From positions 1-64,000 of IMG/VR virus record IMGVR_UViG_3300043436_004480: 64,000 nt of DNA; one strand, written 5' to 3'. Both the position numbers and the translations under genes were made by a program. Under the pieces are notes generated by a model, which did no database searches, had not been told where the DNA came from, and was given only the letters and a program-made list of their open reading frames with translations. The DNA comes from a virus. Below are positions 24,844-42,709 of the stretch, piece after piece. Each line of letters starts with the position of its first letter. Positions within the stretch are counted from its first letter, which is position 1.

Positions 24844-25074
24844 CTAATTATTTAATTTTACTAGTGGTTGAACACCTTTGCTTTCTATAAATGCTTTTAT
24901 AGATTCAAAAGTGTAATGGCCTTCTTCTTTTGCAGCTTTTCCACCATCAAAAGATTCAAACATCCCTTTGAATTCAAAGGTTTCTTCATCATACTTGTAG
25001 CCTGCGGAAGTAATAAGATTTGTATTTCCTACGTTACCTCCAATACTTTTCAGATATAAAGTCTTTATTGCCAT
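24844..25074 (-). CDS. Hypothetical protein
   Basis: 76-aa ORF coupled to its neighbours. Confidence 0.55.
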   Translation of the reverse strand: MAIKTLYLKSIGGNVGNTNLITSAGYKYDEETFEFKGMFESFDGGKAAKEEGHYTFESIKAFIESKGVQPLVKLNN

Positions 25075-27092
25075 TAGAAAGTTACTTTTAAAACTCTTTC
25101 GAAGCTTCCTTTTACTCTAACAAAAATTTCATTTCTTTGAGTTTCAGAGAAACCTAAGCCTGATAATTGTTGTTGAGAAGGTTCTACTTTTAATTTTGAA
25201 CCTAAAACTTCAAATACCTTTCTGTTTTCATCAAATTCTTGTTTTAAGAATTCGTTGAAGAAAGGTCTTGGAGTTTCATCACAAATACAGTTTTCAAGCA
25301 CAAATATGTAGTGCTTGTTTCCTGTTGCTTGTCCCCAGTGGTTTGGAGAAAGCATTACGTTCTTAACTTTGACAAAGTTCTGAGTTTTAGTTCCCCACTT
25401 TTCAACTGATTTTGCAGCTGATTCTTTTGAGTTTAATGGAGAACTTATTGTAAACTTGCCATTTTTCAAGTTCACAACTGCAACTTGAACATTTTCATCG
25501 CCTTTTAAGTTTTTTGGGTACTCAAATTCATGTATGATACCATCAAACTCCACTTGCGCTTTAAATCCTCCTTTGCTGAGACTATGAGAAAAATTGTTAA
25601 CGTACAGATTATAGTTTCCGTCTTGCATTCTTGCTTTGTTAGACCAAACTATATTTTCTACTGCTATATCTTTTCCCGGGAATCTTATATCTACATCCAA
25701 ATTTCCTGACATTCCAGAAATTGATCTGTCACCACTTTTATTATACTGTCCGTAATAAATGTGAGTTCCGTTAGGTTCCTTTGCGTGAGCATCAAAATCT
25801 ATACTGTTTTTGCCATCATGATTCCATTCAATTGAAAATCTCAAAACACCTTCGACATTTCCGCCTGCACTCTTTACTCTCTCTTTCATAGAATCTGCAA
25901 TTGCATTTACATATGACCAAGAGAATAAATTATTCCATTTGAACAATGGTTTTGCATCTTTGTTTACTCCTGTGATAAGAGTAATCAAATTTGACAAGTG
26001 ATTGTTTTCTACAAGTAATTCAACTGAACTACTTGTTGGAAGTACATCTTTTATGAATTTCTCAATGGAAATTGTTTCTGCTTTTGAGAAAGATTTTGCA
26101 GAAACAGAAGATGTTGCGAGATCTGAAAATACGTCTTTTACGGTTGAACTTTTATCAACAAATAAAATATCGTTTATGTCCAGATCTGATTCTACTGCAA
26201 ATCTTCTTTCTAAAGAATCTTGCAATCCTAATTCAGTCAACTTTTCTTTCGCCTGTTCTACCATTTTTGGAGTAACTAGCGCAGTAGGTCTTTTGTAATT
26301 AGCTGGAGCCATAACTACTTCATATTTTGAAACGCAGGCATCCAAATCTAATACACCTTCTGACAAATCGACAAGCAATGTACCAATTGCGGCATTTCTT
26401 AATCTTGATATTGTAGGAGGAACCATACTTGCAGTTTTCATGCAGAAGTTTCTTTTTACTTCTACATCATCTGGAAGTTTTACAAACAATTCTTTTAAAC
26501 GAGAGAATTCTTTTACTAAATTCACAAATTCTGAACCACGATACAAGGAGTTTTGATTTGTCAATTCTACAACTGTTTGCAAAGCATCAGTAGTTATAGT
26601 TTCTAAACCTCTCTGCAAAACTTCGGCAGTAGTTCTGAACTCACCAACTTCACTTGCAACTGTGCCACCTCTAACTACATAAGTAGTTGGAAGTTTTAAG
26701 AAAAAGTGATTCCAATTTACGTCTTTGATCGGATCATAATTCTTATCTGTACCAAGTTTAACAAAATCATTAATGAATTTGCTACGAACTGGTAAAGAAT
26801 GAATATAGTCACGAATATTTTTTACAGATTGAAAATATTCATCTGTTTCTTCAAGTTCAATATCCCAAAGAGATAATTTCTTGTTGTTCTGAATTGCTAC
26901 AATTCCTGACCATTGTCTTAGGAAGGATTTGCAACAATTACAAGTGTTACCTTGACGAGTTTCTTCTGTGAAACCATCTAAGTATAAGTCCCAAATCTTA
27001 TCTTTGTCTATTTCAACAAAGAATAATGTGGAACCTGTCAGTAATACTTCAAACTGACTTTGGACTTTCTGTTTTAGTGCTAAAAAGCTCAT
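25074..27092 (-). CDS. Large conserved phage protein with CxCC motif and TerD/YfaP-like C-terminal domain
   Basis: TCNCCKSFLRQ; APANYKRP; LRFSIEWN..DFDAH..EP; LDVD..AVENI; SPNHW..GNKHYIF. Confidence 0.65.
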   Translation of the reverse strand: MSFLALKQKVQSQFEVLLTGSTLFFVEIDKDKIWDLYLDGFTEETRQGNTCNCCKSFLRQWSGIVAIQNNKKLSLWDIELEETDEYFQSVKNIRDYIHSLPVRSKFINDFVKLGTDKNYDPIKDVNWNHFFLKLPTTYVVRGGTVASEVGEFRTTAEVLQRGLETITTDALQTVVELTNQNSLYRGSEFVNLVKEFSRLKELFVKLPDDVEVKRNFCMKTASMVPPTISRLRNAAIGTLLVDLSEGVLDLDACVSKYEVVMAPANYKRPTALVTPKMVEQAKEKLTELGLQDSLERRFAVESDLDINDILFVDKSSTVKDVFSDLATSSVSAKSFSKAETISIEKFIKDVLPTSSSVELLVENNHLSNLITLITGVNKDAKPLFKWNNLFSWSYVNAIADSMKERVKSAGGNVEGVLRFSIEWNHDGKNSIDFDAHAKEPNGTHIYYGQYNKSGDRSISGMSGNLDVDIRFPGKDIAVENIVWSNKARMQDGNYNLYVNNFSHSLSKGGFKAQVEFDGIIHEFEYPKNLKGDENVQVAVVNLKNGKFTISSPLNSKESAAKSVEKWGTKTQNFVKVKNVMLSPNHWGQATGNKHYIFVLENCICDETPRPFFNEFLKQEFDENRKVFEVLGSKLKVEPSQQQLSGLGFSETQRNEIFVRVKGSFERVLKVTF

Positions 27093-34624: not shown

Positions 34625-34650
34625 AATTTTGATAATTTTAAAGGTTAAAA

Positions 34651-34687: not shown

Positions 34688-35365
34688 CTAAGCTTTTACA
34701 GTTGTTTGTTCTGCATAATTACCTGCTGGAACAGAAACAGCATTGGAGACAGATGTTTTTGCAGCAGTTTCTTGAAGTTTCAAGTCTTTTGCAAGCAAAT
34801 TTTCAATCTCTTCATCTAACCAAATGTCGTGAGTTTCACGATAATCAATGTCAGTTTTTCCTCCAAGAGTTAATGAAGCAACTTTAAATTGAGCTACAAA
34901 GCGAGCTTTAACTTCGCCAGTTTCTTGATCTACAAAGTTTCTTCTCAAATACGGAACAATTTCTCTGTCTTTTAGACGTACTAATTGTGCCATTTTGATT
35001 TTATCAAAAGTAGTAAGACCATTGGCAATTGCACTTCTTTGATTTTCGCTTAGCAACGGAGCGCAGGCATAAATCATAATAATTCTTGGTCTGTCCCAAG
35101 CATCCACTTTTTTCTGCAATTCTTCTATGGTATCTGTTTCATTAACTTCCATCCATACTATTCTTTTGGAATCGTAAGATTTTGTTGATGCATCAGTTAA
35201 CAAAACTTCGTGGTGGGTTTTGCTAGGATCGTTACCATAAAACAACTTTACTTCTTGTTCAAGCGTTGCTTGAAATCTGTTTTCGCCAATTGACGACTTT
35301 TTTACTTCTGTTACAGTTAATTTGCCAAACTGTACTGGACGAGAACTTTGATTTAAGTTTTCCAT
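34688..35365 (-). CDS. Hypothetical protein (225 aa) with a structured upstream region
   Basis: ORF preceded by the triple-hairpin element. Confidence 0.75.
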   Translation of the reverse strand: MENLNQSSRPVQFGKLTVTEVKKSSIGENRFQATLEQEVKLFYGNDPSKTHHEVLLTDASTKSYDSKRIVWMEVNETDTIEELQKKVDAWDRPRIIMIYACAPLLSENQRSAIANGLTTFDKIKMAQLVRLKDREIVPYLRRNFVDQETGEVKARFVAQFKVASLTLGGKTDIDYRETHDIWLDEEIENLLAKDLKLQETAAKTSVSNAVSVPAGNYAEQTTVKA

Positions 35366-35404
35366 TAGGATTTTTGAGATTATTTTGAGAAATAGTTTTA
35401 ATTC

Positions 35405-35478
35405 TTAGCATTGACAGCTAAATTCAAATAAACTTATGCGTTGACAGCATTGCTACATTGACAGTAAGCACGTTTATT
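35405..35478 (-). promoter_or_regulatory. Three hairpins with a conserved 7-nt loop (UGUCAAY)
   Basis: Plus strand: TTAGC-ATTGACA-GCTAA, ATGC-GTTGACA-GCAT, TAC-ATTGACA-GTA. Confidence 0.6.
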
Positions 35479-35746
35479 AAGGAAGGATGTGTTTCTGCAC
35501 AATACACATCAAATTGTTGTGAAATAAGAACTTTTTAAAATACTTAAAGTCTCTCCGCAATTTTCTATTAATAAGGACTTCTGCAACGACTTCGCAGCAT
35601 TTGGAATCTTATGAAAATAGAAATAATTAACTAAGGAAGTTAATACATGATTTTTACTTCTGCACGATACCTCTTACGTTATGAACTAGTCATCGACTTG
35701 AGTTACGCCCCACATGTTTGTCATTTCTGAAGAATTTCTGTAAAAT

Positions 35747-35775
35747 AAAAAACTCTCTGATTTCTCAGAGAGTTT
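35747..35775 (-). terminator. Terminator of the tmRNA coding piece
   Basis: AAACTCTCTGA-GAAA-TCAGAGAGTTTTTT. Confidence 0.8.
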
Positions 35776-36050
35776 ATTCACCGTTTTAGTAGGTTTCACT
35801 CGTTTAGCTTATGCTGCAACTGCAACACGAGAAAACATAGGTACTGATTTGCCGTTTATGGCTTTGCTTTCCTTTCTCAGCGATTTTTCATACTGTCAAA
35901 ACCGGTCTTCCCCAATTTGCAGAAATGCATCTGCACAGTACTAAAGCGACTGGTTAGCTACAACAAAAGTTGAGTGGAGAAGTAGGGATTCGAACCCTAG
36001 TCCAACATGAATTCTACTTCGATACAAGCGGAACGCATCGTAAAAGTATG
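35750..36050 (-). ncRNA. ssrA: Circularly permuted (two-piece) tmRNA
   Basis: Acceptor piece ...GAC TAGGG TTCGAAT CCCTA CTTCTCC A ends at 35975 and lies upstream of the coding piece, which starts GGGGAAG ACCGGTTTTGAC at 35913. G3-U70 pair present. Tag frame 35853-35809 reads GKSVPMFSRVAVAA*. The 5' end of the acceptor piece is approximate. Confidence 0.9.
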
Positions 36051-36109
36051 CAGAGTTATTTAACTATGCAACTTTAAATTTTAAATCTTTTCCCAGAAAA
36101 AGAAAAAGA

Positions 36110-36499
36110 TTAGGGCAACTGTTGATTTTCAACATCTGACTCCTCGAACTTGATTATTATATCAAACTCAATTTGTAGTTCTGCACCAGTTAACATTTGT
36201 TCTTCTGGAGTCCAAGATATATACACTTCACTACCTATGAATATGTTATTCATAACAAGTTCAGGAATTAATATGTATCTATGTTGCCACTTAACTGTAT
36301 TTTCATCATAAGTAAAGAAATCTATTTGTAAAGCTTCATTTTTTGAAGCATTATCTAAGTAATCTTTATCTATGTTGAGAAAACACTTGTTTTGCAATTC
36401 TATTCTTAAACTTGGTGCAATTTCTTCAAGTTTTATACCTTTTATAAAGCTTGTTTCCTCTGACCAATTTTGTGTTTTGCACTCTCGTGTTATTTTCAT
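36110..36499 (-). CDS. Hypothetical protein
   Basis: 129-aa ORF. Confidence 0.65.
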   Translation of the reverse strand: MKITRECKTQNWSEETSFIKGIKLEEIAPSLRIELQNKCFLNIDKDYLDNASKNEALQIDFFTYDENTVKWQHRYILIPELVMNNIFIGSEVYISWTPEEQMLTGAELQIEFDIIIKFEESDVENQQLP

Positions 36500-36500
36500 A

Positions 36501-36659
36501 CTAATCTGAATTCATTTTGTACAAACCGGCTATTCCTAGTAAAGATATAATTCCAAAAGCATAGCTTTTTCCAAAGTTTGATTCTAAAACACCTTCTATG
36601 CAAAGAAATAAATCTATTCCTATTAATACGCACATGATAATACTTCCTATTTTTTTCAT
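36501..36659 (-). CDS. Small membrane protein with two hydrophobic segments
   Basis: MKKIGSIIMCVLIGIDLFLCIEG...AFGIISLLGIAGLYK. Confidence 0.6.
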   Translation of the reverse strand: MKKIGSIIMCVLIGIDLFLCIEGVLESNFGKSYAFGIISLLGIAGLYKMNSD

Positions 36660-36666
36660 AGATGTA

Positions 36667-36807
36667 TTATTTTCTACAACCTGTACCCATAGTACAAGCT
36701 GGTCTGTTTCCATACTTTTTATAAGCAGTATGTCGCTTTTGTGCATTATTCTGAGTTGCACAACTCGTTATTGCTATTAAAAGCAATAATGCAATTACTG
36801 TTTTCAT
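36667..36807 (-). CDS. Small lipoprotein (46 aa, not in the ORF track)
   Basis: MKTVIALLLLIAITS-CATQ..., a signal peptide with a lipobox. Confidence 0.65.
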   Translation of the reverse strand: MKTVIALLLLIAITSCATQNNAQKRHTAYKKYGNRPACTMGTGCRK

Positions 36808-36947
36808 GCTGTTTCAGTTTTAATTTTAAATGTTGTTGTTTTCTGTATATCCTGAAATAAAATAATCCAGAGCCATAGACTCTGGAATATTAACTACATA
36901 TTATACAAAATTATGAACACATCATTTCGATTACCCGAAATGTAGTT

Positions 36948-37032
36948 GCTGCGTACACAGGATTCGAACCTGCTTTGTTCAGACAACACGAGTTTCACGT
37001 GCGCAAACAAAATCACCATTAGAAATACGCAG
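36948..37032 (-). ncRNA. tRNA-like RNA without a canonical anticodon arm
   Basis: 8-bp acceptor CTGCGTAT/GTACGCAG, D-like loop TAATGGT, long central hairpin, T-arm GCAGG-TTCGAAT-CCTGT. Confidence 0.7.
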
Positions 37033-37294
37033 TTTAATTTATTAAACTTTCTTTGCAGTATCTTAGCAACAGAATAATAAATTAGTAAGTTTCTCTGGTT
37101 CTTCCCCTTTCTCTTTGAAACTTACAAATGTCTGAGATTGGAGGTTCTTGGTTTAAACAAGTCGAAATACGGGATTCATAGCCCGCACTTCAACTCAAAG
37201 TATGTTTACTCTTAATAAAATCACATAGACGGAAACATACAAAGTTTCTATGCAAAGTTTTACTCAATTACAATAGTTGTAATTATTCATTTGA

Positions 37295-37753
37295 CTAATC
37301 ATGTCCAAATATATCTTCTTCAAGATAAGACTTGACAGGCTCCTGAGTTTTTTCTTTTTCTGGGACATCTTTCATAGAATCAATCCTTGAAAGTAAGTTC
37401 TTTACATCAACTTTTTGACGAAGATCAGAATTTTCTTTTGCCAAGTTATCAATTTGACTTTCTAAACTTCCTATCAATTGAAGACGAAAAGCATTTTTAT
37501 TTACTTCGTTTGCAAGATTTCTATTTATTCTTTCCGTTTCTTTATTCACTTGATTTACAAGTAGATAGCAAAGTAGTATCAAACCTAAAACAGAACTCAA
37601 TAACAAAAGAGTCAAGAGTATAATTTCAAGTTTAATTAAGTTAGTTCCAAGAACTATCCAGAAGATTAAACATGTTGCTACAATTGACAATGCAATTATA
37701 GCTAGAATTTGCGTGAATGCAGTAGCTGCAATTTTATTGATTTTGGTATTCAT
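37295..37753 (-). CDS. Membrane protein with two hydrophobic segments and a coiled coil
   Basis: Two hydrophobic segments followed by heptads. Confidence 0.7.
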   Translation of the reverse strand: MNTKINKIAATAFTQILAIIALSIVATCLIFWIVLGTNLIKLEIILLTLLLLSSVLGLILLCYLLVNQVNKETERINRNLANEVNKNAFRLQLIGSLESQIDNLAKENSDLRQKVDVKNLLSRIDSMKDVPEKEKTQEPVKSYLEEDIFGHD

Positions 37754-37762
37754 AATTTTAAT

Positions 37763-37786
37763 TCTGTTAGCCTATACACAGAAAGG
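37763..37786 (-). repeat. Leader pseudoknot, type I, copy A
   Basis: CCT-T-TCTGT-GTAT-AGG-CTA-ACAGA, 9 nt before ATG. Confidence 0.7.
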
Positions 37787-37809
37787 TGTTTTGGTTGGTA
37801 AATGAGCAA

Positions 37810-38259
37810 TTACGATAATAGTAATTGCTCTAATTTGTACTTTGATTCTTTTATTAACATTTCTAAAATGTCAACATGACCAATTAAATATGCAGTTTCA
37901 TTTCCAATATGACCTTCTGCACGTTTTTTGTATTCTGCAATTTTACTTTCATAAAATTTGATGTTCTCTTCATGAACATTTTTAATATTATGAATATTTT
38001 GCATCTTTTCATCTTGAAGTGCATCCCAAGCATACAAACTTTCATCTGCAAGTTTGTTAATATCTTGGAATGTTTCCCTAATCATAAAGCACATTCCTAT
38101 GAATGCGCCAAATCCTAGAGATATTAGAGCGTAACCCATAATTACTACGGATTCCAACTTGTTTTCTGTAAATTTGTTTCCTATTATACAAGAAACGAAA
38201 ACTAACAAAAACATTGTTAGTATGGCAAATATATTGCCTTTGATTTTACTTGAATTCAT
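37810..38259 (-). CDS. Membrane protein with two hydrophobic segments
   Basis: Two N-terminal hydrophobic segments. Confidence 0.7.
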   Translation of the reverse strand: MNSSKIKGNIFAILTMFLLVFVSCIIGNKFTENKLESVVIMGYALISLGFGAFIGMCFMIRETFQDINKLADESLYAWDALQDEKMQNIHNIKNVHEENIKFYESKIAEYKKRAEGHIGNETAYLIGHVDILEMLIKESKYKLEQLLLS

Positions 38260-38270
38260 AATTTTAAAGT

Positions 38271-38294
38271 TCGATTGACCTATGTATCGAGAGA
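38271..38294 (-). repeat. Leader pseudoknot, type I, copy B
   Basis: TCT-C-TCGAT-ACAT-AGG-TCA-ATCGA, 11 nt before ATG. Confidence 0.7.
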
Positions 38295-38302
38295 TATTAT
38301 TT

Positions 38303-38665
38303 TTAAAGTTTTGTTAAGCTTCTACATCCGATGATTTCACCTTCGGAATTTCTTACTGTTTCTGCAACGATGTAAAAATCATTGCGTTCGGGATAATACG
38401 TTTTTATTGATTGTGCAGCAATTTGCGACACAACATAAATCGTATTTTCCTTTTCTTCTGGGATGAAATCTGGTTCTCCGAAAGACGTTTTAGCCATAAC
38501 TGGAATTCCGAATGTTCCTCTACTTATGAAAGTTTCTTGAACATATGGATTCTGCTTTGCTCTAACAATTCCGTCACTTTCAATCTCTAATGCGATGACA
38601 TCTACGTCATCTATTTGTGCATAAAATCTTAGTTTATGCGGAGTGAAATTTTTTATTTCAGTCAT
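38303..38665 (-). CDS. Conserved phage protein (NxTPH family)
   Basis: IKNFTPH..VVS..VRNSEGEIIGCRSL; start moved to the ATG after the leader motif. Confidence 0.7.
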   Translation of the reverse strand: MTEIKNFTPHKLRFYAQIDDVDVIALEIESDGIVRAKQNPYVQETFISRGTFGIPVMAKTSFGEPDFIPEEKENTIYVVSQIAAQSIKTYYPERNDFYIVAETVRNSEGEIIGCRSLTKL

Positions 38666-38675
38666 AATTTTAAAT

Positions 38676-38699
38676 TCGATTAACCTATACATCGAGAGG
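38676..38699 (-). repeat. Leader pseudoknot, type I, copy C
   Basis: CCT-C-TCGAT-GTAT-AGG-TTA-ATCGA, 10 nt before ATG. Confidence 0.7.
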
Positions 38700-38708
38700 T
38701 TTTGAGAT

Positions 38709-39062
38709 TTATAATTTGTTGTTACTACGGATCATGAATTTTCCGTATGCCATTAGAGTTTCTCCTGCTAATTGAGAGTAAACTGAATCGGGACACATGT
38801 ACGCATCAGTTAGAAATTCTACTTCTACTAAAGTTTCAGGGTTAGTTCCTAATTCTAGTGCATTATCAACGTGCTTTTTTAGCTCTGCTAAAGTTAAATG
38901 TTTACTTTTACTTTGAACTTCTTCAAGTTCAGCAAAAGCCAACTTTTCTTTCAACTGATTCATTTCTGAAGTCATCTGAGTTATCAATTCTTCGCCAGTT
39001 GAACCAGCGATGTCTGCTGCGTAACCTTTAATACGCATTTTTAATTCTTCTACCTTTGTCAT
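38709..39062 (-). CDS. Hypothetical protein
   Basis: 117-aa ORF. Confidence 0.7.
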   Translation of the reverse strand: MTKVEELKMRIKGYAADIAGSTGEELITQMTSEMNQLKEKLAFAELEEVQSKSKHLTLAELKKHVDNALELGTNPETLVEVEFLTDAYMCPDSVYSQLAGETLMAYGKFMIRSNNKL

Positions 39063-39072
39063 AATTTTGAAA

Positions 39073-39094
39073 TGGTTGCCTTTACACCAAAAGG
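39073..39094 (-). repeat. Leader pseudoknot, type I, copy D
   Basis: CCT-TT-TGGT-GTAA-AGG-CA-ACCA, 10 nt before ATG. Confidence 0.65.
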
Positions 39095-39330
39095 TTAATT
39101 TTGAATTTTAAATTTGACGGAATGTGCAGTCACGCACTGTGAATAAGAACTTGTTCTGTTGATTAGACTACAAACAATTTGTTTCTTACATCTGCACATT
39201 CATTTTAACAGAGGCCAAGATATAATATGCAAGTTGACAAAAGTTAATCAGACTTTTGTCCAATGTTATTCTTTCTGCACTATATCTTATTTATGCTCCA
39301 CGCATACCTCTGCTAAAACTGTCAAACTTT

Positions 39331-39440
39331 GTCACAATGAGAAGATTCGAACTTCTAAAGTTTTTCGGATTAGAATCTTGTCTAATCTTACTAAGGAATC
39401 TACCGATTTCCTCAACTATTCCACCGACTGGACATTGCGA
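39331..39440 (-). ncRNA. tRNA-like RNA with a branched domain in place of the anticodon arm
   Basis: Acceptor TCGCAATG/CATTGTGA, D-arm TCC-AGTCGGT-GGA, T-arm AGAAG-TTCGAAT-CTTCT. Confidence 0.75.
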
Positions 39441-39590
39441 ACAAGTAGTTTAAAATTACGACGTATATCAAATTCATTATTTGATATTTACTTAGGTCGT
39501 GTCTATTTTTCACCCTATAACAACAAAATAGACTAAATTTGTTACTGGGATGCTTTCTTACGAAAGTTTTCAGGAAAAGGTACTATCATA

Positions 39591-39647
39591 AACAGTTTAA
39601 CAACTTGTTGAGGTTCTGAAAAAGCAGTTTTAAAACTTGCTTAGGTT
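39591..39647 (-). repeat. Type II motif, two tandem copies
   Basis: AACCTAAGCAAGTTTTAAAACTGCTT and AACCTCAACAAGTTGTTAAACTGTT. Confidence 0.65.
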
Positions 39648-39676
39648 TTGAAATTAACGGTACTATTATAAACGAA

Positions 39677-40240
39677 TTATTTAAATTCGTTTATAAACTC
39701 TTGAGAGCAACGGCAAATTTCTAATTCTGTATCATCTCCTCTATTTAAATAAAACAGAATGTCAAAATTATCCACTTTGATCACTAATTCATAAGAACCT
39801 TGACCAGAAGCAATCATGAAAAATTCAAGATTTCTTTTGTTAAGTTTGAATTTTTCTATTTCTCTTTTTAAGGTAGAAAATACAAGTTCAGCATCTTCTC
39901 TGCTAAGAATCTTTGATTCATTATCACAAAGAAATTGTTCACGTTCTGCAAGTTCTCGTTCTGTTTTAGAAAACATAGGACGAATTCTTTCGTCTATATA
40001 TTCTGCATGCTCTTCATCATGTTTATTAGCATAATGAATATAATCTGTTGAATTGCTGAATTCATACAGAGGACCATTTTCGTCATTCTTTATGTATAAC
40101 AAAATGTCGTTACCGTTATCATGAACAAGATATTGTTCATTTACTAATTTGAAAGCATATCTAGCTTCTGTGTTAGCAATTATTTCTTCTAAATTAGGAA
40201 ATAATTTAATTGCAATGTCCTTTGTGATTAACCTAGGCAT
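39677..40240 (-). CDS. Hypothetical early protein, possible internal duplication
   Basis: 187-aa ORF. Confidence 0.7.
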   Translation of the reverse strand: MPRLITKDIAIKLFPNLEEIIANTEARYAFKLVNEQYLVHDNGNDILLYIKNDENGPLYEFSNSTDYIHYANKHDEEHAEYIDERIRPMFSKTERELAEREQFLCDNESKILSREDAELVFSTLKREIEKFKLNKRNLEFFMIASGQGSYELVIKVDNFDILFYLNRGDDTELEICRCSQEFINEFK

Positions 40241-40316
40241 AACTCTGAATGCAGCTTCTCATCTGAGAATTTCGACTCCTTTAAGTCTTATTATACTGCT
40301 ACTTTTTACTTTTAGA

Positions 40317-40362
40317 TATTATTGAAAGATTCGAACTTTCTGATCCACCGACTGGAATAATA
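40317..40362 (-). ncRNA. Minimal 46-nt tRNA-like element (acceptor, D and T arms only)
   Basis: TATTATT-CC AGTCGGT GG-ATCA-GAAAG TTCGAAT CTTTC-AATAATA. Confidence 0.7.
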
Positions 40363-40364
40363 AG

Positions 40365-40390
40365 GAACAGTTTTTAAACTTGTTCAGGTT
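40365..40390 (-). repeat. Type II motif, third copy
   Basis: AACCTGAACAAGTTTAAAAACTGTTC immediately after a stop codon. Confidence 0.65.
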
Positions 40391-40720
40391 TTAATCTGCT
40401 AACCAGTCGTATTCAGATTTATCGAAATAGTCTGGATCACTAATATCTTTGTTATCGAATGCTTCTAGTTCTTCTATGCTTTTTCTTAACGAAGGATGCA
40501 CTCCAGTATTTTCTTGCCACTCGACTATCTGCTCATCAGTAAGTTCAACTTCATTTCTAAGTTGTGCAAGAAATTTATTTCTATCGTCGTCTGTAAGGAT
40601 TTCTCCATACATATTCTCAAAAATTTCGACGTTGTCTTCATGATAAAGACGTTCTGCTTCTCTGAAAGGAATTTTTAACTCTAAAGAAGCGTATGCGATT
40701 AATTCGTTTTGAAGGTTCAT
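40391..40720 (-). CDS. Acidic early protein
   Basis: About 29 D/E versus 10 K/R in 109 aa. Confidence 0.7.
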   Translation of the reverse strand: MNLQNELIAYASLELKIPFREAERLYHEDNVEIFENMYGEILTDDDRNKFLAQLRNEVELTDEQIVEWQENTGVHPSLRKSIEELEAFDNKDISDPDYFDKSEYDWLAD

Positions 40721-41754: not shown

Positions 41755-42591
41755 CTACAATGAATTAAGGATTTGTTTAGAGCGAGTAGGTAATTCATAA
41801 ACAGTCCATTGTAGAGAATGTAGAAACTGAAAAGCTTCTTCTGAAGTTTCATTTTGAAGAAGTAATAATCCTAGATCTTCATGAATAGAAGCAACAGGTC
41901 TGTTATTGTAAAGAATTACTACTGAACCTCGAAGTTCTGGATGGTTAAGATAGAAAGAAGAGAAAGGAAAGTCTCTGTTTATATCTGAATACAAATTTTG
42001 CATAGGAACAACTCCATATTCGAAGTGAGGTATATAGAAAGCTGTCGCAGATTCTTGTTCGTTAGTAACTCCAATTGCATATGAATTTCCATATTGAAGA
42101 AGACATCCAAGTTGAGAAGTTTTAGCTTTTGTTTTTAAATACAAAGCACTAAGCAAAGGATTTATAGAAGGATTCTGCAAAAGAAGTTCTACTGCAAACC
42201 AATCAACAGTATATCGTTGTGAATTTGAAAATCTAACAAGTGGACAACCTAAAGCTGCATCATCTATATATATATGTGCAAACTGTTTATTAGAATGGCT
42301 CCAACTTTGATCTGGATTAAAGTTCAACCAATCAAGATTGAATTTAAGATCGTGCATTTTGAGAAAGTCAAAAGCTTCTTGCAAAGTGTCTACTGGTTCT
42401 GAATCTTTGTCTGGTCTGATTTGCAGAGTACTTCGCATAGTCCAGAGCATAAGTTGAACTTCCGGAATTGTAGATAGTTTAGTTAGAACTTTCTTTGCAT
42501 ACGGAACAAGTTTGCCTATTCTTGGGAAATCATGAGTTACAATTGTTCCATCGAAGTCAACTCCGATAATAATCTGGTTTTTTTGAGACAT
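41755..42591 (-). CDS. HAD-superfamily phosphatase (BT0820-like) with C-terminal extension
   Basis: VDFDGTIV, LWTMR, YIDDAALGCPL. Confidence 0.8.
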   Translation of the reverse strand: MSQKNQIIIGVDFDGTIVTHDFPRIGKLVPYAKKVLTKLSTIPEVQLMLWTMRSTLQIRPDKDSEPVDTLQEAFDFLKMHDLKFNLDWLNFNPDQSWSHSNKQFAHIYIDDAALGCPLVRFSNSQRYTVDWFAVELLLQNPSINPLLSALYLKTKAKTSQLGCLLQYGNSYAIGVTNEQESATAFYIPHFEYGVVPMQNLYSDINRDFPFSSFYLNHPELRGSVVILYNNRPVASIHEDLGLLLLQNETSEEAFQFLHSLQWTVYELPTRSKQILNSL

Positions 42592-42709
42592 ATTATATAT
42601 GTATAGGTTAAAGGTTAGATTGCTCTGGGAAAGAGGGCCGAAATGAGAATCGCCCAAGTCTTTTTCTTTTTTTGGGACTACTATTGACCTGTAAAAATTT
42701 TGACTTTTA

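Follow-up and report, generated by a model that had tools for sequence, protein, structure and literature searches.

tRNA-like elements, a permuted tmRNA, a ribozyme and short hairpin motifs as candidate RNA-processing signals in a crAss-like phage

The stretch of viral DNA considered here, hereafter the window, comprises 64,000 nucleotides (nt) of IMG/VR record IMGVR_UViG_3300043436_004480, being the first 64 kb of a 93.7-kb genome with 32% G+C, and between 35.4 and 40.4 kb its minus strand bears a succession of structured RNA elements amid small open reading frames (ORFs) without a known family. These comprise a permuted transfer-messenger RNA (tmRNA), a predicted Hatchet self-cleaving ribozyme, three tRNA-like elements without an anticodon arm (E1, E2 and E3), intrinsic terminators, and two short hairpin motifs, one placed before start codons (motif A) and the other after stop codons (motif B). 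The explanation that best accommodates them, to which we would give a probability of roughly 0.45, is that this part of the minus strand is made up of short transcription units whose RNAs would carry their own cutting signals and be divided there into individual messages and small RNAs. Since a permuted tmRNA needs tRNA-type cutting and ribozymes of the Hatchet class self-cleave, at least two kinds of RNA cutting are therefore predicted to be built into this strand. An initial annotation of the sequence had held that nearly every intergenic gap of the region contains a structured RNA, and this stands: about seven of the nine minus-strand gaps do. The Hatchet ribozyme, the three terminators and the occurrence of motifs A and B in unrelated phages did not figure in that annotation.

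Predicted cutting sites: the tmRNA, the ribozyme and the tRNA-like elements

At Rfam gathering thresholds the window returned two matches, both on the minus strand: the permuted tmRNA, where the cut-off is 47 bits, and the Hatchet ribozyme, where it is 51 bits. They are given below together with the tRNA-like elements and the terminators:

35809-36021, minus strand: permuted (two-piece) tmRNA, Rfam RF04321, 59.1 bits
35645-35734, minus strand: Hatchet self-cleaving ribozyme, Rfam RF02678, 61.4 bits
40317-40362, minus strand: E1, a 46-nt mini-tRNA with a 7-bp A/U acceptor, a D-loop-like AGUCGGU, a 5-bp T-stem and a UUCGAAU loop, without an anticodon arm
39333-39439, minus strand: E2, a 107-nt tRNA-like RNA with an acceptor (including G2-U71), a D-arm, two hairpins replacing the anticodon arm, and a T-arm
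36949-37032, minus strand: E3, an 84-nt tRNA-like RNA with an 8-bp acceptor, an AAUGGU D-loop and a T-arm
41412-41379, minus strand: intrinsic terminator
about 36886-36856, minus strand: intrinsic terminator, ~60 nt past E3
about 35775-35740, minus strand: intrinsic terminator after the tmRNA coding piece

The permuted tmRNA of the initial annotation is supported independently by ARAGORN, which calls it at 35718-36064 with the tag GKSVPMFSRVAVAA. Its pieces run in the order of the T-arm and 3' acceptor piece (...CUUCUCC-A), an intervening stretch of ~56-61 nt, and the 5' acceptor piece GGGGAAG with the tag frame. The alanine marks are in place, i.e., G3-U70 (GGGGAAG/CUUCUCC) and the discriminator A73, the tag frame has a resume codon and closes with a stop, and CCA is not encoded; the tag itself resembles that of a crAss-like relative, G017 (AKVIPMTGMQVRLAA). 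Hatchet ribozymes self-cleave at their own 5' edge, and the copy in the window starts ~15 nt past the U-tract of the tmRNA terminator, with the core stretches ...UGACAA..., ...UGUGGGGCGU... and ...UCGUGCAGA.GU.AAAAUCA... matched. The precursor of a permuted tmRNA must be cut into two pieces by tRNA-processing enzymes (PMC11915505); on this established knowledge, host tRNA-processing enzymes would have to cut the precursor at the 5' end of the coding piece and the 3' end of the acceptor piece. SmpB, a CCA-adding enzyme and RtcB are all absent from the 93.7-kb genome, so that the tmRNA would need host SmpB and the proposed processing as a whole would require host enzymes.

The T-loop word GTTCGAATC occurs four times in the 64 kb against an expectation of 0.41, with every occurrence on the minus strand between 35987 and 40336—one inside the tmRNA and three in the tRNA-shaped folds E1-E3. 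In all three folds the acceptor, of 7-8 bp, stacks on a T-stem of 5 bp that ends in a UUCRANY loop, the D-loop contains GG, and the D-arm, with its D-loop AGUCGGU, is identical in E1 and E2. The structure of E2 is its minimum-energy fold, while the centre of E3 is a single irregular 14-bp helix capped by UGAAACU and its ends read UG...CAG, followed by CAAC. A descriptor that combines a T-arm with an in-register 7-bp acceptor recovers E1-E3 along with two A/T-rich, probably false matches, as against a mean of 0.4 matches in 20 shuffled genomes, which bears out the three anticodon-less elements first noticed by eye. Neither ARAGORN nor Rfam at default settings calls a true tRNA anywhere in the genome; relaxed thresholds do call tRNAs in the region, but they also give 17-26 false calls in 8 kb. 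A canonical tRNA identity was rejected for E1-E3 on this absence of default calls, on the missing anticodon arm of E1 and on the UGAAACU loop of E3, a canonical arm being taken as a 5-bp stem with a 7-nt loop that has U33 and a purine at position 37; the only Rfam match of E3 is a weak one to tRNA-Sec (21.8 bits, E = 1.1).

Comparable elements recur among distant relatives, i.e., 80 environmental crAss-like loci gathered by TerL alignment (35-39% identity), each taken with up to 10 kb on either side. In the 32 longer records among them, a permuted tmRNA scores above the cut-off in two (G017 and G022) and a standard tmRNA is found in one (G009), all three lying upstream of TerL on the opposite strand, as in the window; a Hatchet ribozyme of another relative (G005) occupies the same relative position and again lies just downstream of an intrinsic terminator. 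The descriptor finds mini-tRNAs of 41-50 nt in six loci (L142, L188 with two, L190 with two, L198, L210 and L217) and larger odd tRNA-like RNAs in four (L157, L165, L223 and L224), all of them intergenic and all on the strand opposite TerL. When no pre-selection is applied, 20 of 59 T-arm candidates in the 80 loci close an in-register 7-bp acceptor as against 3-6 at shifted controls, and 17 of these 20 are on the strand opposite TerL. Upstream of its tmRNA, G017 further carries a 121-nt tRNA-like RNA with the same ends as E3, from which it differs by compensatory changes in the acceptor stem and T-stem. The element in L157 is a tRNA-Leu-like gene with a ruined anticodon arm. A further tRNA-like gene, at L224:5417-5523 (G022), ~1 kb upstream of the permuted tmRNA, matches the Rfam tRNA model at 45 bits, is not called by ARAGORN, and has its anticodon loop expanded to ~36 nt by an inserted hairpin. 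A pattern of D-arm plus T-arm run over viral contigs yielded only chance matches in coding sequence and one true tRNA-Leu.

A metagenome search with the 3' end shared by E3 and its G017 counterpart returned not only tRNA-Gln genes but also a conserved family of RNAs, ~30 in number and 107-172 nt long, that are built like class II tRNAs. The D-stem has 3 bp and a AAAUUGGCAGA loop, YNGUCUC caps a stem of 5 bp, and both a long variable arm and a T-arm are present; the ends are Gln-like (UG...CA-G, then CAAC). Members lie at L261:6136-6244, L275:1195-1310, L304:10442-10722, L223:8827-8947 and ~25 more metagenome loci, some of them inside phage tRNA arrays, and ARAGORN and Rfam make no call on any member. 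Against a model of this family (R2) built from 16 members, the G017 element is a clear member, though one that belongs to the training set, and E2 and E3 give weak matches with rough E-values (17.8 bits, E ~0.009, and 16.0 bits, E ~0.03, respectively).

Hairpin motifs at stop and start codons

The remaining gaps are occupied chiefly by copies of motifs A and B:

40365-40390, minus strand: motif B copy 1, AACCU, then a hairpin made of a 5-bp stem, a bulged A and an inner GUU/AAC stem
39590-39647, minus strand: motif B copies 2 and 3, in tandem (starts at 39647 and 39615) after the ORF at 39677-40240
39443-39497, minus strand: motif B copy 4, split by an inserted hairpin, its sequence read by eye, ending 3 nt before E2
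39060-39096, minus strand: motif A copy 1, ACCU, a 5-bp stem and the loop GUAAAGG, then UCAAAAUUAUG
38663-38701, minus strand: motif A copy 2, with the real start codon at 38665
38257-38296, minus strand: motif A copy 3, with UCU in place of CCU, giving a U-G pair
37751-37788, minus strand: motif A copy 4

Motif B copy 1 starts directly after the stop codon of the ORF at 40391-40720, and the motif ends 2-3 nt before E1 and E2, just as in an unrelated phage (L082) it ends 7-8 nt before a true tRNA-Asp. A pattern scan of viral contigs places it in at least 116 contigs. Among the matches listed, pairing at the five variable positions is bimodal, with 44 contigs showing five Watson-Crick pairs and the others lying around chance; motif B copies stand in at least 17 unrelated upstream-gene contexts, always sense to the flanking genes; and in 29 of 47 cases the ACCU starts 7-8 nt past the upstream stop codon. 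In the outer stem four of the five pairs are compensatory, a count inflated by the pre-selection of external copies for full stem pairing, so that the bimodal split is the unbiased evidence; several lineages moreover have U-G pairs, which on the opposite strand would read as A-C mismatches. The motif is found in cultured phages of Planktothrix, Polaribacter, Moraxella, Clostridium and others, spanning four bacterial phyla, where its sites are unannotated spacers between small hypothetical genes, and it is nearly absent from bacteria, with five matches in 185,579 species genomes. No published paper with its sequence was found.

Motif A has exactly four copies in the 93.7-kb genome, which precede four consecutive genes and each end 9-11 nt before the AUG. 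In IMG/VR, a pattern scan adds four unrelated phage records (21-68 kb) in which it likewise immediately precedes a start codon, and it is absent from the cultured phages searched. Across eight copies, four of the five pairs of its 5-bp stem change on both sides. The initial annotation had described four start-proximal and three stop-proximal pseudoknots, and it is the hairpins of both sets that are borne out, the latter with a fourth, split copy added. The crossing stem of motif A (CCU with AGG) is invariant save for one C-to-U change that keeps a U-G pair, while that proposed for motif B (AAC:GUU) is invariant and competes with the equally invariant inner stem. The hairpins of both motifs are accordingly supported by covariation, with the pseudoknot of motif A putative and the crossing stem of motif B likewise putative. 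The comparison with Rfam that had been suggested at the outset matched the tmRNA and added the Hatchet ribozyme, and it returned no family for motifs A and B. Neither motif has a copy in the 80 TerL-anchored relative loci, and short DNA contigs from other lakes match only motif-sized pieces of 34-36 nt, with unrelated surrounding sequence. G-U pairs favour the minus strand in E2, E3, one motif A copy and many motif B copies, in agreement with the strand assignment originally made.

Both motifs open with AAACCU, a word that recurs 5-25 nt upstream of many start codons even without a hairpin (e.g., AAACCUUAAAAUUAUG); minus-strand sites lie at 34646, 30636, 29774, 27930, 21111 and 3755, and another is found in L224 near 5400. 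It may be a shared 5' untranslated-region or cleavage signal. In one group of unrelated phage contigs (L029, L030 and L059), pairs of DnaA-box-like words (TTATCCACA / TGTGGATAA) lie 40-70 nt downstream of motif B.

Two further features complete the region:

35405-35467, minus strand: three hairpins with differing stems and a common UGUCAAY loop, ~40 nt upstream of the ORF at 34688-35365
39110-39320, minus strand: two long irregular hairpin domains 3' of E2 (folding z-score -5.6, coding controls similar)

The former, the triple hairpin of the initial annotation, contains the only three hairpins with this loop in the whole genome. One of the latter domains opens with the word AATGTGCAGATGTAA, which is seen again in a hairpin at 34677-34650. 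Folding z-scores were discarded as evidence in this genome because coding controls are as low as the non-coding gaps (-2.6 to -4.6 by dinucleotide shuffling for three coding controls within 37295-40240, sense strand).

The genome of this crAss-like phage encodes a crAss-type major capsid protein and a muzzle protein, and its capsid protein is only ~33% identical to that of the nearest Crassvirales in GenBank. The sequencing runs that contain this DNA are lake and freshwater metagenome DNA runs. Genes run leftward on the minus strand from ~42.66 kb and rightward from 42.75 kb, and the RNA elements fall in the leftward block. The closest TerL relative (P0003, 77% identity) is on a 90-kb contig of an NCBI metagenome-assembled genome. 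DNA of the whole region had no match among GenBank phages; searches of viral contigs with the 187-aa ORF, the 120-aa ORF, the 672-aa protein and the capsid protein returned nothing, as did a TerL search of metagenome contigs, and no relative of the 120-aa protein turned up among 5.8 billion proteins. Elsewhere on the minus strand, 41755-42657 encodes a 300-aa protein whose sole match, scoring under the family cut-off, is to a BT0820-type HAD phosphatase; its relatives in crAss phages are labelled in GenBank as polynucleotide kinase/phosphatase or phosphoheptose isomerase, the kinase/phosphatase label not being confirmed. The 672-aa protein (25074-27092, minus strand) matches phrog_1735 along its full length (E = 3.7e-225) and shares ~44% identity with proteins from large phages of Klebsiella, Salmonella and Clostridioides that carry conflicting annotations, and is therefore not crAss-specific.

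Proposed RNA processing and its rivals

The proposed processing might run as follows. E1-E3 would offer the acceptor, T-arm and elbow shape that RNase P and RNase Z read, such that host enzymes could cut on either side of them. After the RNase P cut, the AACCU hairpin of motif B would be left as the 3' end of the upstream message, where it could serve as a shield against exonucleases; the hairpin of motif A, 9-11 nt before an A/U-rich start region of the Bacteroidota type, might provide a protective or regulatory 5' end for the downstream message; and the Hatchet ribozyme would sever, between the tmRNA and the gene that follows, any transcript reading through the terminator. The idea of processing at tRNA-shaped tags draws support from the permuted tmRNA, the Hatchet ribozyme, the adjacency of motif B and the mini-tRNAs of relatives, and the part of it that has to be given up is the single transcript.

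Several considerations tell against this picture. As first put, it envisaged one long early transcript, a version contradicted by the three intrinsic terminators of the minus strand, because of which several transcription units are posited here instead; the "early" timing of the region is likewise an assumption, and none of the matched sequencing runs that contain this stretch is an RNA run. E2 is set in a 614-nt non-coding stretch rather than at a tight gene boundary, and E3, because its own terminator follows and an ortholog exists in a distant relative, resembles an independent small-RNA gene rather than a mark of punctuation. The Hatchet alignment lacks most of the P1 of the model, which leaves only a 3-4-bp UUC/GAA stem possible, and with such a P1 the activity of the predicted ribozyme is not assured. 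Of ~52 motif B copies, only 3 stand next to a tRNA or tRNA-like element, so that in most phages the motif would have to work without such neighbours, and end protection alone leaves its invariant loop unexplained. Motifs A and B also occur alone in many unrelated phages, which means that they do not belong to a phage-specific system.

The terminator and ortholog of E3 lend some weight to a different and rather unlikely account, in which E2, E3 and perhaps E1 would be stand-alone small RNAs acting in trans on the host tRNA and trans-translation machinery—products, then, rather than cutting signals. Such RNAs might titrate SmpB, EF-Tu, a synthetase or the CCA enzyme, or might act as decoys for defences that attack tRNAs. 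The counterpart of E3 stands upstream of a tmRNA in G017, a tmRNA of mycobacteriophage DS6A that retains only the tRNA-like domain reportedly acts as a tmRNA inhibitor (PMC4131195), and the crAss-like phage phi14:2 makes abundant early non-coding RNAs, all of which would fit. However, E3 carries G3-C70 and not the alanine mark G3-U70 of tmRNA, and the E2 and E3 matches to the class-II-shaped family are weak (16-18 bits). The decoy version, also advanced in the initial annotation, found no support, since E1-E3 lack the anticodon loop at which anticodon nucleases usually act, and neither a defence nor a counter-defence gene is linked to them. It could alternatively be held that E1-E3 are decaying remnants of a former tRNA array with no present function: crAss-like phages often carry tRNA arrays, an intact tRNA is absent from this genome, and the ruined anticodon arm of the tRNA-Leu-like gene in L157 might be seen as a step on that path. 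Yet in E1-E3 the acceptor, D-loop and T-arm are intact and only the anticodon part is gone, many relatives show this design too, E3 and its G017 ortholog are separated by compensatory changes, and the D-arms of E1 and E2 are identical, which together render decay very improbable.

For motifs A and B the competing account is that they act mainly as DNA, as promoter-like or recombination sequences that move small gene cassettes in the manner of the promoter-stem-loop cassettes of T4-type phages. The near identity of 26-40-nt motifs in otherwise unrelated phages, their position beside small genes of unknown function and the rarity of motif B in bacterial genomes would all be expected from such mobility. 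What makes this account quite unlikely is that stem pairing is kept through two-sided changes and U-G pairs, the latter being A-C mismatches on the other strand, that the motifs are always oriented with the flanking genes, and that their spacing is fixed, for motif B relative to stop codons and for motif A relative to start codons. Returning to RNA processing, a broader form of it may tentatively be entertained, and is put forward with less assurance than the form confined to this region, namely that many phage lineages, the present one among them, routinely punctuate early or middle transcripts with tRNA-shaped signals read by the host, ribozymes and, at a set distance past stop codons, the AACCU-hairpin motif, all as an undescribed modular RNA-processing code. 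Motif B would then be a new widespread element whose reader is a factor that widely differing hosts share or that the phages bring along.

If RNase P and RNase Z do cut at tRNA-shaped tags, the expression of phage operons would depend on tRNA-processing enzymes, and the tags would provide a handle for predicting the mRNA boundaries of uncultured phages. Motif B, as a compact, near-invariant hairpin present in tractable cultured phages (Moraxella, Polaribacter, Planktothrix and Clostridium), has a function that is directly testable. The region also adds a crAss-like lineage to the carriers of two-piece tmRNAs and supplies a concrete recurring context, directly after intrinsic terminators, for the Hatchet ribozyme, a class of poorly understood biology.

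Parallels with known systems

A parallel for E1-E3 is offered by the mascRNA of MALAT1, itself a tRNA-shaped processing signal, and by the t-elements of plant mitochondria, where tRNA punctuation and tRNA-like processing signals have been described (Forner et al. 2007, PMC1920247). In each case tRNA shapes without a decoding role lie between or after coding regions, and cuts by RNase P and RNase Z, proposed or shown, create mRNA ends. The present case differs from the t-elements in that it concerns a bacteriophage, the enzymes would be the bacterial ones of the host, the elements are predicted from sequence, and a ribozyme, a tmRNA and small hairpin motifs are interspersed among them. No literature on tRNA-shaped punctuation in phages was found.

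Two-piece tmRNAs have been published for the methylophage Melnitz and other aquatic phages (PMC9004378), with which the present one shares a permuted ssrA in an aquatic phage, a tag frame of its own, a position near the start of a transcription unit and the absence of a phage SmpB. Here, in contrast, the carrier is an environmental crAss-like phage, Rfam detects no glutamine riboswitch, and the tmRNA is preceded by tRNA-like RNAs and followed by a Hatchet ribozyme. The HDV (hepatitis delta virus)-like theta ribozymes that adjoin phage tRNAs (PMC10879173) are similar in being small ribozymes cutting at their 5' edge directly downstream of a phage tRNA-type gene, whereby they can define the 3' end of the upstream RNA. 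The ribozyme of the window is instead a Hatchet (RF02678) that follows an intrinsic terminator rather than a tRNA body and has an unusually short P1; no literature linking Hatchet to tmRNA was found.

E3 and the reduced tmRNA of DS6A both have an acceptor, an analogue of the D-loop and a T-arm, with a single long helix standing where the anticodon arm would be. The identification of E3 as a tmRNA of this type was nonetheless rejected, for it has G3-C70 and not G3-U70, its acceptor is of 8 bp, and tmRNA models do not recognize it. In the crAss-like phage phi14:2, long intergenic stretches among small genes are transcribed above most genes, their function being unknown (bioRxiv 10.1101/2020.03.07.982082). 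Such stretches among the small genes of a crAss-like phage are what the two genomes share, a likeness by description only.

RNase III sites lie between the early genes of T7, and phages of the T4 type carry promoter-stem-loop cassettes. These resemble motifs A and B as conserved intergenic hairpins between small genes, which would provide stable mRNA ends or allow cassettes to be shuffled; in contrast to them, motifs A and B are too short for RNase III, have no recognizable promoter, and extend across phages of several bacterial phyla. The tmRNA and the ribozyme of this region are thus of known kinds, and what appears undescribed is the use of tRNA-like signals by a phage, together with the widespread stop-proximal motif.

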